Assembly: GCA_048882505.1 (NCBI GenBank)
Contig: JBHLRO010000019.1
Coordinates: 1 to 32,000, forward strand
DNA from: Candidatus Thorarchaeota archaeon
GTDB taxonomy: Archaea > Asgardarchaeota > Heimdallarchaeia > Hodarchaeales > Hodarchaeaceae
Direction of reading: 5' to 3'
DNA length: 32,000 nt
Shown here: piece by piece, positions 19,054 to 27,202 of the stretch
Numbering within the stretch: the first letter of the stretch is position 1
Layout of the letters: each line of letters opens with the position of its first letter
Notes under the pieces: generated by a model
Seen by the model: the letters and a program-made list of their open reading frames with translations, nothing else
Told to the model about the DNA's origin: nothing
Databases searched by the model: none
Made by a program: the position numbers and the translations under genes

Positions 19054-19854
19054 ATGTATGATCTGGTTCTAGATGCCATAGTCCTCTTTTTTGCAGTTCC
19101 ATTGTCTATGTGGAACCTTAGAACGTTTAAAAAAGACAGATGGAACCTTGCGTGGATCGTCCCTTGGTCGCTACTTTTATTTATAGAAATTTCTCCTTTA
19201 GAAATCTTACTTTTTGTTCTGGGGATTGTTTTGGGGTATCTAACAGATATCGTCGGTGTCTTGGGCAAGAAGTGGTGGTATCCCCACTATTCCACCCGCC
19301 TATATTCCCTATCGGCCGGTTATGGTTGGGGTATTATCACGTTAATCATATTCAGGTTTTATTTCTACATTATAGAAAATCTAGCCGACGTCATTAGCTG
19401 GATACTCCTAGGAGCATTTTTTTTTCTTTGGATCGGTGTTGAAATTGTTTGGGGCCATCCAAACCTTTCTAATCCATGGTTGTTAATTCGTACGGTTCTC
19501 ACAATCCTTTTCCTGTTAATATCCAATGATATTCTTTTTCTCTTGGTCGCCGCGGCGGGAGCTGTATATCTTGAGGTATTGGGAACATCTCTCAGAATCT
19601 GGATCTATTATGATAAAGCGCCGTCTTACCTGCATTTAGGGGCTGGATATGCTCAATTGAGTTATGTCTGTCTTCTGATCGCAAACCTAGCCATAAATAA
19701 TATCCTCCCTTCTATTCTACAGGTAGTAATCCTTCTGATACTAGTAATTCTTTATGTTATGGATTATTCTGGAATAAAACTCTCAATATGGGAAAATAGA
19801 AGAAAAAAAACGTTGATTGACGAATTTGAGTGGAAACAACAAAACTTGGATTAA
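19054..19854 (+). CDS. Polytopic membrane protein with an internal duplication ([DE]x2Gx5WxY...AGY), lycopene-cyclase-domain/DUF2878-like
   Basis: DIVGVLGKKWWY...AGY (aa65-90) and EVLGTSLRIWIY...AGY (aa174-199), with identical spacing in both copies. Confidence 0.6.
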   Translation: MYDLVLDAIVLFFAVPLSMWNLRTFKKDRWNLAWIVPWSLLLFIEISPLEILLFVLGIVLGYLTDIVGVLGKKWWYPHYSTRLYSLSAGYGWGIITLIIFRFYFYIIENLADVISWILLGAFFFLWIGVEIVWGHPNLSNPWLLIRTVLTILFLLISNDILFLLVAAAGAVYLEVLGTSLRIWIYYDKAPSYLHLGAGYAQLSYVCLLIANLAINNILPSILQVVILLILVILYVMDYSGIKLSIWENRRKKTLIDEFEWKQQNLD

Positions 19855-20717
19855 GAAGTGACATCATGGAGAATCTCAAAGCGGTTACTGACTTGGCTCG
19901 CCTGAAAGCTAGTATTTTAGTAGGTTTAGCTGTGATTTTAGGCCAGGCCGTGGCTCTTGGTGGTCTGGCACCATTTGATCAGCTAATCCTTGGATTCCTG
20001 GTAGGTTTTATCCTTTCTGCCTCTACTAATACAATTAATGACGTATTTGATCTAGAATTAGATCGTCTCGAAAAACCTGACCGACCACTCCCTCAGAGGG
20101 AATTATCCGTTTTTCAAGCGATATTATTGTTTGTAATTGAGACCATCCTAGCGATCTTATTTAGCCTATTTCTAAATTTACCTGCGTTTATTCTAACTGT
20201 CTTTGTAGCAGGGGTTTCTTTCATATACTCATATAGCCTCAAGAATTACCTTCTTTTCAAAAATACTCTCACTGCTTTCGGTGTGGCCTCGGCATTTCTT
20301 GTGGGAGCTTTAAGTACGGGAAGAATTCTTCCTCTTGCTGTAATCCTTTTCTTTTTTCAGATTTTTATTACCGTTGTTGCATTTGAGGTCCATAAAGACA
20401 TAGCTGATGTTGAAGGGGATTATTATCTGGGCAAAAAAACGATAGCAACAACGTTCGGAACGCAGAAGGCGGCTTTCTTGGCTGTTTTTTTGTATGCTGG
20501 GGCTTTCTTGTTATTTCAGGGAATCTTAGTCCAATCCACCTCTTCTCTAATAGGATGGTTATGGATAGTGGATGGTTTGGGTACCATGATCGGTTTTTCG
20601 TTCCTTTTTCCGATTATAAGGGAGCAAGATCCGCCCACAATCCATCGGGCCCGAAAGAGGATTATGGCCACTTTGGGTGTTTTTGTCCTTGCATCAATTC
20701 TCAATTTTCTTGGTTGA
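19830..20717 (+). CDS. UbiA family prenyltransferase (DGGGP synthase-like)
   Basis: Asp-rich motifs NDVFDLELDRLEKPDRPLP and KDIADVEGD..LGKKTI; about 8-9 TMs. Probable ATG at 19866. Confidence 0.9.
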   Translation: METTKLGLRSDIMENLKAVTDLARLKASILVGLAVILGQAVALGGLAPFDQLILGFLVGFILSASTNTINDVFDLELDRLEKPDRPLPQRELSVFQAILLFVIETILAILFSLFLNLPAFILTVFVAGVSFIYSYSLKNYLLFKNTLTAFGVASAFLVGALSTGRILPLAVILFFFQIFITVVAFEVHKDIADVEGDYYLGKKTIATTFGTQKAAFLAVFLYAGAFLLFQGILVQSTSSLIGWLWIVDGLGTMIGFSFLFPIIREQDPPTIHRARKRIMATLGVFVLASILNFLG

Positions 20718-26500: not shown

Positions 26501-27202
26501 CCCCAATACGGTTGGATATTGGCGTTTCTGATTGGTTTTTTCCTGGCTTCCTTGGGATATTTGATCGCATCCATCAAACTCCCCTTTAGATCCTTTTTTA
26601 TCTTTTATGTGCTTGTGATCCTATGGGCTTGGGGTGAAGAGGGCATTTTCACCACAGTAAACTTCTGGAATTACTTGGATGGGGATCCCTTCCGATTGAT
26701 ATTCATCATTTTAGGCTGGCCAATCGTTTTTCTCTTGGTCATCGGAATGTCAAATTGGATCTTGAAATACATTCGGTTATCAGATGCCACAGGAGGCATC
26801 GTTACTCGGATAAAAAACGTGCTTCCTGTTTTGGCCCTTATAGGGCTATTTAGTGTTTTATCCGTACCTGAAAACCTATTAGATATGATTACATCTTTAG
26901 ACCAAACATTTATGCTAGTGGTTAGTGGGATAATCGGCCTACTGATCATTTTCACCTTTTTATTCGGTGCTACACATACTTTCAAGCAGAATATAGTTTT
27001 AACGGTTATGGCCATGTTTGCAGGGGCCATTCTCGAGATTATTGGTCATTTGGCTGGGTATTGGACCTATGCTGCTCTTTTCCTTACTGGACCGTACACC
27101 ATAGTCGTACCAAACTTCCTAATTATAATTTGGGCATTCCGTGTGTTTTCAATACTCTTTCTCACCCAAATCCTCCGCCAACATATCATAAGGTCAAGCT
27201 AA
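23546..27202 (+). CDS. 1218-aa multidomain membrane protein: N-terminal TM module, DUF362 domain, TM-interrupted soluble domain, and C-terminal multi-TM domain
   Basis: DUF362 motifs at aa~146-400: IKPGDHVVIKPN, SIPTMKTHLLTGVTLGMKNFYG, IIDG..GGEAIGP, SNDVVTADA..AFMMGFDP. More than 15 hydrophobic segments elsewhere. Confidence 0.8.
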   Translation: MSFVLDPPTLFVIGMILALLNKKFLPAQLTRILGFLVVLIFWWASIGLYLDLFVWPFNVFDWTPPDLFEPIGGKQWMLHTDLTGITDIPNILAALIFALYPLFLWFGYEITRGIIDPHAIRIVSKRVYNTDDVRSRLRARQKTTPVLLSTVRNPDPRKAVREAVRLVGGIIKFIKPGDHVVIKPNISGGNPEVPGSYTSIEVVDVLIDMIREVGGIPTAVVDSDMVWTDFEDVARAEGWMEWSKHKDVPLINLRKTDCVRFDFGTESKIGVSVVSKLMLDADVIVSIPTMKTHLLTGVTLGMKNFYGTLPEGDKAKYHKTGIEDVIIDMNIAFPPTLTIIDGSVGGEAIGPLTCRPVNFQTVIVSNDVVTADALAAFMMGFDPVNEIEHIKKAHHLGLGNASVTFDWSSFPYPHKKDGNWIRTDPQVSHFYNEAIELALEIPTMKKFMNAASDFLLYDTATLPVFKNVTPAVLGVVGDIIAGVFNIWGKMRGGRKKARIASKIEEKLYPQRITGEAWPSKKIQDALLAIRGTTEFQHSPTMENAIDLTPSESKEAGELAHTFNPEILLEGVELRSEANTFSGMMYRVLENPQNLNERCIQYLYTWTSQKWFWSNWYNILVPFFLAALGIIIFTQTAEESWFWTELTIGFMVGFLFLAGLWRVLRTLRGWRRTGKFKYVYRHQFILIPYAALFSAMLVELPPRWAGTTYLPPIPTGDPLIGTIYIPAVSLVFIIIPLLVLLIKLQPFFSIFAHKIDYAPVFVYIKKENNHWVFDKVRYDKFHHDVATRRRKELRGKLRSQQQVKLAIPDSWHSMGPSRGFGRFWSAIGFLGFLACYAILLVARIQYPLLVEGMDLVGILVAISLLFAYIFFTKYQSKLHKMSLEDFKEQKYSLTQEKLAILWNLADPDPALKIRQKMQDPFNPSSSFWESFFDMKEEHFVQDELNAVRTRTGRLFSFGFGLVTVTLAWGGFYFGGFWDHSWNVLQTPQYGWILAFLIGFFLASLGYLIASIKLPFRSFFIFYVLVILWAWGEEGIFTTVNFWNYLDGDPFRLIFIILGWPIVFLLVIGMSNWILKYIRLSDATGGIVTRIKNVLPVLALIGLFSVLSVPENLLDMITSLDQTFMLVVSGIIGLLIIFTFLFGATHTFKQNIVLTVMAMFAGAILEIIGHLAGYWTYAALFLTGPYTIVVPNFLIIIWAFRVFSILFLTQILRQHIIRSS

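Follow-up and report, generated by a model that had tools for sequence, protein, structure and literature searches.

Do two neighbouring membrane proteins that carry the same repeated motif, together with a prenyltransferase and a flavoprotein encoded between them, act on isoprenoids in one pathway? The preliminary description of this locus suggested that they do, by way of a shared membrane module with the motif [DE]-x2-G-x5-W-x-Y. We analysed the locus in a window of 32 000 nucleotides (the whole stretch of DNA considered here); its features are collected in Table 1.

Table 1. Genes, domains and motifs of the locus, in window coordinates
Feature	Position	Strand	Basis
P0001, 266 aa, polytopic membrane protein	19054..19854	+	ORF list
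P0001 motif 1, D65-x2-G-x5-W74-x-Y76, end of helix 3	19246..19281	+	
P0001 motif 2, E174-x2-G-x5-W183-x-Y185, end of helix 7	19573..19608	+	
UbiA-family prenyltransferase (P0002), 283 aa from ATG	19866..20717	+	PF01040; start per orthologue gene calls
Multi-TM protein, 398 aa, C-terminal soluble domain	20736..21932	-	no family match
Divergent GGR-superfamily flavoprotein (P0004), 374 aa from ATG	22309..23433	+	TIGR02032, weak
P0005 fusion, 1218 aa: N-terminal TM region, DUF362, unclassified middle membrane domain, C-terminal module	23546..27202	+	
P0005 C-terminal module, residues 944-1218	26375..27202	+	motifs; alignment with standalone homologues
P0005 motif 1, E1032..W1041-Y1043, F1035 at G position	26639-26674	+	
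P0005 motif 2, E1164..W1173-Y1175	27035-27070	+	
Long GGR paralogue, 468 aa	9857..11263	-	

All four [DE]-x8-W-x-Y motifs of the preliminary description were found in the translated ORFs at their positions, including the one with F1035 in place of G, as was the AGY that follows both P0001 copies at +23. Each repeat of both modules thus has the acidic residue-x8-W-x-Y that had been compared with the D-x8-W-x-[YF] core of lycopene cyclases. The genome has 4299 ORFs of 100 aa or more (1.33 million residues), and a search of these gave 39 occurrences of the motif in its loose form and 7 in its strict form. Only three ORFs carry it twice; two of them, P0001 and P0005, are 3.7 kb apart in a 4.3-Mb genome. 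No RNA datasets containing the stretch were listed; the DNA datasets that contain it are sediment or unspecified metagenomes.

The motif residues of P0001 are invariant in 13 orthologues. In a wider set of 20 sequences, including paralogues at ∼20% identity, W74, Y76, E174, W183 and Y185 are still invariant, and the conservation of D65 is 90% or higher. P0001 shows homology between its two halves (hhalign E-value 4.9e-8), indicating an internal duplication, and the AF2 model (pLDDT 85.5) has nine membrane-length helices. Searches of Pfam (to E-value 1) and NCBIfam gave no family match; as PF07281 was not matched in the Pfam search either, P0001 falls outside the INSIG sequence family. Compared with clusters of predicted structures, the model was closest to a DUF2878/‘carotenoid biosynthesis’ cluster (TM 0.60/0.65), followed by DUF817 (0.55/0.54), Caroten_synth (0.54), INSIG (0.48/0.50) and fungal CarRA (0.42). 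Among solved structures VIA-align ranked MvINS highest (Z 9.3, rmsd 3.9 Å, 147 residues aligned, P0001 residues 44-217), with human Insig at Z 6.7 and the next row at 5.6; for helical bundles such as these a Z under ∼13 is not decisive alone. Foldseek against the PDB also pointed to Insig proteins (prob 0.96-0.99), with no match at E-value ≤0.001. The model comparisons suggest that P0001 has the six-TM Insig fold, and they support its description as an internally duplicated module of the Insig/CrtYcd/CruF/DUF2878/DUF817 fold group.

In P0005 the DUF362 domain (PF04015) is nearly complete: residues 180-376 match profile positions 1-199 of 200 (E-value 1.7e-40, 139.7 bits). We take DUF362 to be a large family, uncharacterised and related to LarA, a nickel-pincer enzyme; neither a solved homologue by sequence nor, in the literature searched, a characterised function was found for it. 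The C-terminal module has no Pfam or NCBIfam family match (Pfam searched to E-value 1), and its residues E1032, W1041, Y1043, E1164, G1167, W1173 and Y1175 are invariant in four full-length P0005 homologues. As its AF2 model, built on a 4-sequence alignment, reached a pLDDT of just 42.7, it was excluded from the fold search, and we infer the fold through a standalone homologue from genome G372 (HMM E-value 1e-9, ∼17-21% aligned identity). The Atlas model of this homologue (pTM 0.76) matches clusters that agree in label, length and member count with those matched by P0001, as well as Lycopene_cyc (TM 0.54-0.57) and a 788-aa archaeal DUF362 fusion (TM 0.77).

Standalone homologues of the C-terminal module were recovered by a six-frame genome search, while a word-indexed search had returned none. 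Profile matches (E-value about 1e-4) to 493-aa proteins of another genus (g43) were set aside because these proteins do not have the [DE]-x8-W-x-Y spacing. The parts of P0005 also occur as separate genes. In G372 a 501-aa protein that aligns to P0005 residues 1-484 adjoins a 249-aa module gene, and in G321 a 1023-aa protein that aligns to residues 34-921 has a divergent 265-aa module gene beside it. DUF362 and module are neighbouring genes in the Asgard family f31 and are fused in P0005; no UbiA gene was found near the DUF362/module genes of f31. In other Asgard lineages the C-terminal module thus travels with DUF362, not with UbiA.

The idea of a shared membrane module holds for the fold, as predicted, with the C-terminal module represented by its homologue: the same fold clusters are matched on both sides. 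As a statement on sequence kinship it holds less well. Of the four cross-module pairs of half-profiles, three gave E-values of 4e-4 to 3e-3 and one 0.037, weakly above a background of 0.06 to 0.75 in 20 control comparisons with unrelated TM slices. Direct profile comparison of P0001 with the C-terminal module by whole-module hhalign was not significant (prob 1-12%): one run aligned the motif only (E-value 0.057), another gave a weak match (E-value 0.0026, prob 11.5%). P0001 and P0005 are free of P-x-[ED]-[ED] over their whole length, in agreement with the preliminary description, and neither protein gave an HMM match at E-value ≤1 to PF18916, PF04240 (CruF/Caroten_synth), PF11086 or PF05675. 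Given that neither module matches a Pfam or NCBIfam family and that PxEE is missing, the data support classifying both, as modelled, as new families of a known fold. We know of no enzyme activity in a close relative of either module.

The other two proteins named in the preliminary description are present as described. The UbiA gene starts 11 nt after the P0001 stop, and its product belongs to the UbiA superfamily (PF01040, E-value 4e-37), with intact Asp-rich motifs (N55, D59, D62, D66, D178, D181 and D185 invariant, numbered from the ATG). Its best NCBIfam models are PRK12884 and DGGGPS models, all under cut-off: 176 bits on a DGGGPS-like model, and 131 and 112 bits on PRK12882/12883 (DGGGP synthase; cut-offs 353 and 296). 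On PRK12875, which we take to be the putative LyeJ model, it reached 24-25 bits (cut-off 205). Among solved structures, MjDGGGPS is closest (6m31, E-value 2.6e-25). By these scores the protein is DGGGPS-like rather than LyeJ-like. The genome has five DGGGPS-like UbiA paralogues, of which one on contig C10 outscores P0002. An uncontrolled complex prediction for UbiA with P0001 (score 0.00) speaks neither for nor against their association.

The flavoprotein P0004 matches TIGR02032 with an E-value of 2e-14 and 54 bits (cut-off 158.8), i.e. it is homologous and divergent; it also has weak GGR_cat and NAD_binding_8 matches, and its best PDB match by sequence is Sulfolobus GGR (E-value 0.03). Orthologues of P0004 are present in 5 of 22 genomes of the genus, including all four with the DUF362 fusion. 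The genome encodes three long GGR paralogues, among them the 468-aa protein elsewhere in the window; in G071 the 50% identical orthologue of this protein directly adjoins the P0001/UbiA pair.

The minus-strand gene for the 398-aa membrane protein, absent from the preliminary description, also lies between P0001 and P0005. Its product has no Pfam or NCBIfam family match, its syntenic position is kept, and a 59% identical paralogue is encoded on contig C10. It probably has a role in signalling or is a bystander, and does not look like an enzyme.

All five genes also stand together in four further species-level genomes, so that the full order is seen in five species, all of one genus. The conserved synteny extends to unrelated flanking genes in the same order (HhH-GPD, a 139-aa ORF, a 197-aa ORF and Vut_1). 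Co-location, as predicted in the preliminary description, was thus observed; with conservation confined to one genus and embedded in synteny with unrelated flanks, it supports the single pathway also proposed there in part and does not demonstrate it. Outside this arrangement the genes partly come apart. UbiA is immediately downstream of the P0001 gene in 9 of 10 loci (L006 being the exception), and orthologues of the two occur in the same genomes only; one P0001 paralogue stands alone, and no module neighbour was found for UbiA homologues (44-46% identity) in other Heimdall/Hodarchaeota MAGs. The P0001/UbiA pair is present in G060, G061 and G071, of which one is 96% complete; neither P0004 nor the DUF362 fusion was detected in these three genomes. 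P0004 and the DUF362 fusion co-occur across genomes. These patterns support a division into two separable units, P0001 with UbiA and P0004 with the DUF362 fusion.

If the units are separable, they could be neighbours by inherited synteny only, acting on unrelated substrates. The flanking genes kept in order, the three genomes with P0001/UbiA and no second unit found, the DUF362/module genes of f31 without UbiA and the signalling-type gene on the opposite strand between the units are all consistent with such an origin. Still, we consider it rather unlikely: two of only three double-motif ORFs in the genome lie within 3.7 kb of each other, each unit includes, or has nearby, a GGR-superfamily flavoprotein, and both modules share a predicted fold linked to isoprenoid chemistry. 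A connection by way of carotenoids would make the locus resemble the bacterioruberin genes: UbiA would elongate lycopene supplied by the crtB-crtI cluster of contig C28, P0001 would act as a hydratase of CruF type or a cyclase of CrtYe/f type, the flavoprotein would modify the end group, and the product would be a C45/C50 carotenoid. The genome does have crtB, crtI and a canonical fused crtYcd, and a flavoprotein, a UbiA and a protein of CruF fold recall crtD-lyeJ-cruF (PMC11946383). These carotenoid genes are, however, unlinked to the locus: they form a cluster on contig C28, with the fused crtYcd beside a B12-binding gene. The crtYcd product P0048, the sole match to PF18916 in a genome-wide search, carries two copies each of D-x8-W and PxEE, and profile similarity between it and the modules was not above background (E-values 0.08-0.43). 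crtB is present in six out of seven genomes that have a P0001 orthologue, and in 9 of the 15 others of the genus as well, so that its co-occurrence does not discriminate between substrates. With a UbiA that scores as DGGGPS-like and flavoproteins of GGR type, not of CrtI/CrtD type, in addition, we regard a carotenoid module as distinctly improbable. Since the UbiA is DGGGPS-like, not LyeJ-like, and the carotenoid cluster is elsewhere, the likelier substrate is a non-carotenoid isoprenoid, i.e. an ether-lipid-like or polyprenyl compound.

Another explanation denies catalysis to the modules. Insig is a non-catalytic sensor of sterol or diacylglycerol, and the modules could likewise be lipid-binding subunits through which isoprenoids are presented or gated for UbiA and the DUF362 enzyme, in the role of sensor, escort or scaffold. 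The solved structures matched by P0001 are Insig proteins only, the catalytic motif known from the cyclases is missing, and fusion or adjacency of the module to DUF362, a domain of soluble-enzyme type, recurs. On the other hand, the DUF2878-type cluster is a better match to P0001 than INSIG among predicted models, and carboxylates near the ends of membrane helices are conserved in both repeats of both modules, which suggests chemistry over binding alone. We judge this explanation unlikely. A form of it in which archaeal Insig-like isoprenoid-binding subunits couple membrane polyprenyl substrates to UbiA and to a LarA-related DUF362 enzyme is to our mind highly doubtful.

The reading that we prefer, tentatively and as something less than an even chance, is that the locus consists of two separable isoprenoid-tailoring units, each built around a divergent duplicated module of the Insig/CrtYcd/CruF/DUF2878/DUF817 fold. 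One unit would comprise P0001 and the DGGGP-synthase-like UbiA, with a GGR-family reductase nearby; the other would comprise the GGR-like flavoprotein and the DUF362 fusion with its second module. UbiA would move a prenyl group onto a lipid acceptor, and the module would hold the polyprenyl chain in the membrane. The paired carboxylates (D65/E174; E1032/E1164) and the W-x-Y hairpins could then protonate a C=C bond for hydration or cyclisation, as in CruF/CrtYcd, or else position the chain for a partner enzyme; a GGR-type flavoprotein would finally saturate the double bonds.

Two unannotated families would thereby join a fold group otherwise tied to carotenoid end-group chemistry and sterol sensing, and the recurrent fusion or adjacency of module and DUF362 provides a context for the latter. 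Taken with the GGR paralogues, the tight pairing of P0001 with UbiA suggests that Hodarchaeales modify a lipid in a way not yet described; their membrane lipids bear on the archaeal-to-eukaryotic lipid transition. Should the modules be Insig-like subunits after all, DUF362 would gain its first substrate class, and a pairing of Insig fold and UbiA, reminiscent of the eukaryotic Insig/UBIAD1/HMG-CoA-reductase axis, would exist in the order of archaea nearest to eukaryotes. The genes are few, and reconstitution in lipid-producing E. coli would be feasible.

Among known systems, DGGGP synthase is closest to the UbiA both by NCBIfam models and by solved structure (MjDGGGPS, 6m31); the UbiA has intact Asp-rich motifs but scores below all equivalog cut-offs. 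The P0001/UbiA neighbourhood has a precedent in the bacterioruberin cluster crtD-lyeJ(UbiA)-cruF (PMC11946383, PMC9258230), represented in Haloarcula japonica by c0507-c0506-c0505 (PMC11946383). Both have a UbiA beside a polytopic protein of CruF-like fold and a flavoprotein nearby (PMC11946383). They differ in that P0001 has no PF04240 match, the UbiA is DGGGPS-like, the flavoproteins are of GGR type and the carotenoid backbone genes are on another contig. From Insig/MvINS (4xu4, 6m49) P0001 is set apart by 13-16% identity, extra helices at both ends and the conserved carboxylate and W-x-Y motifs. DUF2878 (PF11086) and DUF817 (PF05675), both uncharacterised to our knowledge, are the best predicted-structure neighbours of P0001 and of similar size, though not matched by HMM. 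The cyclases CrtYc/CrtYd and fungal CarR (PF18916) differ from the modules, which have neither PxE(E/D) nor an HMM match to them, and in predicted models, there being no solved cyclase structure for comparison, TM is 0.42 for P0001 and 0.54-0.57 for the C-terminal module homologue; what these cyclases and the modules have in common is a duplicated membrane module with an acidic-x8-W-x-[YF] motif at the end of a helix.

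The motif [DE]-x8-W-x-Y was found at all four places claimed in the preliminary description, two in the 266-aa membrane protein P0001 and two in the C-terminal module (C-module, about residues 944–1218) of the 1218-aa protein P0005, and the AGY at +23 was there too, as was the F that stands in for G in the E1032 copy. The motif residues do not vary among 13 orthologues of P0001, nor among four full-length homologues of P0005. In a 20-sequence alignment of the P0001 family, reaching down to about 20% identity, strict or near-strict conservation was confined essentially to the two motifs and nine other residues (G61, G68, V69, W92, S191, Y192, G196, G198 and Y199). 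A count over the genome's 4299 ORFs of ≥100 aa gave 39 occurrences of the loose motif and 7 of the strict form; only three ORFs carry two copies, and two of these are the neighbours P0001 and P0005. The observation is confirmed as genuine, and chance does not account for it.

Coordinates of the genes and loci discussed (in the window, unless another contig is named)
Feature	Position	Strand	Family match or content
P0050, 139-aa ORF	18441–18860	+	family unassigned
P0001, 266-aa membrane protein	19054–19854	+	no family match
P0002, UbiA prenyltransferase	ATG at 19866	+	PF01040, E 4e-37
P0003, 398-aa multi-TM protein with soluble C-terminal domain	20736–21932	-	no family match
P0004, divergent flavoprotein of the geranylgeranyl reductase (GGR) superfamily	22309–23433	+	TIGR02032, E 2e-14
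P0005, 1218 aa	23546–27202	+	N-terminal TM region, DUF362 (residues 180–376), middle membrane domain, C-terminal membrane domain
P0005 middle domain (residues about 500–940)	25000–26370		no family match
GGR paralogue, 468 aa	9857–11263	-	one of three long GGR paralogues in the genome
GGR/methyltransferase pair	9857–12083	-	468-aa GGR, PEMT/ICMT-family membrane methyltransferase (214 aa)
Paralogue of P0003	C10:8451–9632		59% identical to P0003
Best DGGGP-synthase candidate	C10:17977–18681
Carotenoid cluster	C28, L027:2715–7231		B12-binding-domain protein, crtB (314 aa), crtI (532 aa), 277-aa fused CrtYcd-type cyclase

The window is contig C19 of an Asgard MAG (4.3 Mb, completeness 94.6%); its closest public relatives are labeled Heimdallarchaeota/Hodarchaeota or Hodarchaeales, and its DNA occurs in sediment metagenomes. 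The five genes are surrounded by housekeeping genes. The true start of P0002 is 11 nt past the P0001 stop, as in gene calls of orthologues, and both its Asp-rich motifs are invariant. P0004 scored 54 bits on TIGR02032 against a cut-off of 158.8. The genome has ten UbiA-family ORFs (including two heme O synthases, MenA and five similar to digeranylgeranylglyceryl phosphate synthase, DGGGPS), eight DUF362 genes and at least three long GGR paralogues. The paralogue of P0003 and the best DGGGP-synthase candidate of the genome are ∼8 kb apart; the UbiA neighbourhoods on C19 and C10 may share an old segmental origin.

The AF2 model of P0001, built from a 13-sequence alignment (pLDDT 85.5, pTM 0.80), has nine membrane-length helices; each motif closes a helix and is followed by a short hairpin. 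Comparison of one half of the family profile with the other shows that they are homologous (hhalign E 4.9e-8, probability 95%). Among predicted structures, P0001 matched a ‘carotenoid biosynthesis protein family’ cluster (TM 0.60/0.65; DUF2878 in 11% of members), DUF817 (0.55/0.54), Caroten_synth/CruF (0.54/0.45), a 788-aa archaeal DUF362 protein (0.51), INSIG (0.48/0.50) and a fungal lycopene cyclase/phytoene synthase cluster (0.42). Among solved structures only Insig proteins stood out: MvINS with Z 9.3 (rmsd 3.9, 147 residues) and human Insig with 6.7, the next row having 5.6; Foldseek gave them probability 0.96–0.99 but E 0.15.

The C-module of P0005 itself was modeled poorly (AF2 pLDDT 42.7). 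When 400 Asgard genomes were searched in six frames with an HMM, standalone homologues of 241–265 aa turned up in another Asgard family (E 1e-8 to 3e-11), and the ESM Atlas model of one of them has pTM 0.76. Its structural neighbours have labels, lengths and member counts identical to those for P0001: the 788-aa DUF362 fusion (TM 0.77), Chloroflexota hypotheticals (0.70), fungal CarRA (0.57), a DUF2878-type cluster, Caroten_synth and Lycopene_cyc (0.54 each), with DUF817 also among the matches. Since the structural clusters coincide, the models support placing P0001 and the C-module in one fold group; the shared fold anticipated in the preliminary description was thus borne out, for the C-module through its homologue. 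Aligned fused and standalone sequences retain E, T and Y in motif 1 and E-x2-G-x3-G-x-W-x-Y in motif 2; in place of the W of motif 1, standalone sequences have L or I.

In sequence the modules are only weakly akin. Whole-profile comparisons gave E 0.057 and 0.0026 (probability ≤12%); half-profiles gave 4e-4, 7e-4, 3e-3 and 0.037 across modules and 1e-3 within the C-module, while 20 control comparisons with unrelated TM slices of P0005 gave 0.057–0.75. Neither module resembled the genome's canonical cyclase, P0048 on contig C28, above this control background. P0048 has D-x8-W and PxEE twice each, whereas PxE(E/D) was found in neither module, as claimed earlier. Since Pfam and NCBIfam at permissive thresholds also gave no match, both modules represent new families inside a known fold group, outside CrtYcd, CruF, DUF2878, DUF817 and INSIG.

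Homologues mark P0005 as a gene fusion. In one genome (G321) a 1023-aa protein aligns to its residues 34–921 (34% identity, E 4e-151), with a 265-aa module gene divergently beside it; in another (G372) a 501-aa DUF362 protein aligns to residues 1–484 (45% identity) and adjoins a 249-aa module gene. Around both loci, UbiA and GGR genes are missing. These split neighbours, together with the 788-aa DUF362 fusion cluster of other archaea, tie the second module to DUF362 rather than UbiA. DUF362 is, to our knowledge, uncharacterised, and sequence search found no solved homologue of it; its Pfam clan also includes the LarA N-terminal domain (PMC11770544). The middle domain of P0005 has strongly conserved soluble motifs (e.g. 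YRVLEN..ERCIQYLYTW, RYDKFHHD and WHSM) and is retained in the 1023-aa split form.

The P0001 profile had only 18 matches among 1.84 billion representative proteins, and among the 400 Asgard genomes the family is limited to the window's genus, with orthologues in 7 of 22 genomes and a paralogue in most; no isoprenoid genes adjoin the window genome's own paralogue. UbiA lies directly 3′ of the module gene in nine of ten orthologue loci; in the exception the module gene is amid IS605 transposase genes. UbiA orthologues of ≥57% identity were seen only in genomes with the module gene, in a pattern-limited scan of public genome contigs whose listing may omit the window's own genome. In at least five loci P0050 is conserved immediately 5′ of the module gene, with which it may form one transcription unit.

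The preliminary description read the genes as a single-pathway cluster, which is only partly supported. Co-location recurs: the order HhH-GPD, 139-aa ORF, module, UbiA, 398-aa gene, flavoprotein, DUF362 fusion, 197-aa ORF, Vut_1 is found in four further species (amino-acid identity about 55–60% and 83%). However, this is general synteny, as unrelated flanks are conserved too, and the units are separable. P0004 and the DUF362 fusion occur together in four genomes (a fifth, incomplete one has P0004); they were not found in three genus genomes despite the module/UbiA pair, one of which (G071) is 96% complete. In G071, UbiA adjoins a GGR gene; its orthologue in the window (50% identical), 8 kb upstream, is the 468-aa paralogue. 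This paralogue and the methyltransferase gene beside it make up another small lipid-related pair, at 7 kb from the five genes on their upstream side.

What is new, then, is the families of this fold, the DUF362 fusion and the pairing with a DGGGPS-like UbiA in one Hodarchaeales genus; the cyclase/hydratase/Insig fold itself was known already.

As to substrate, a carotenoid for the module and UbiA is the less favoured reading. Lycopene is available, given crtB, crtI and fused crtYcd on C28; this cluster, whose cyclase matches PF18916 only below threshold and whose B12-binding-domain protein is possibly a CarH-like regulator, occurs in 14–15 of 22 genus genomes. Yet module distribution does not track crtB, and P0002 is DGGGPS-like (176 bits on PRK12884; MjDGGGPS E 2.6e-25), with just 24–25 bits on PRK12875, presumably the model for the UbiA-family elongase LyeJ; in a control run the PRK12875 cut-off was exceeded in just 1 of 14 reference genomes. 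These features, with the GGR-type flavoproteins, lead us to favour, at low confidence, a non-carotenoid isoprenoid lipid. The carotenoid reading draws on the similar architecture of the known bacterioruberin cluster, crtD-lyeJ-cruF, which has in common with the window a flavoprotein, a UbiA and a CruF-fold protein (PMC11946383, PMC9258230), although the flavoprotein there is crtD and those of the window are GGR-type.
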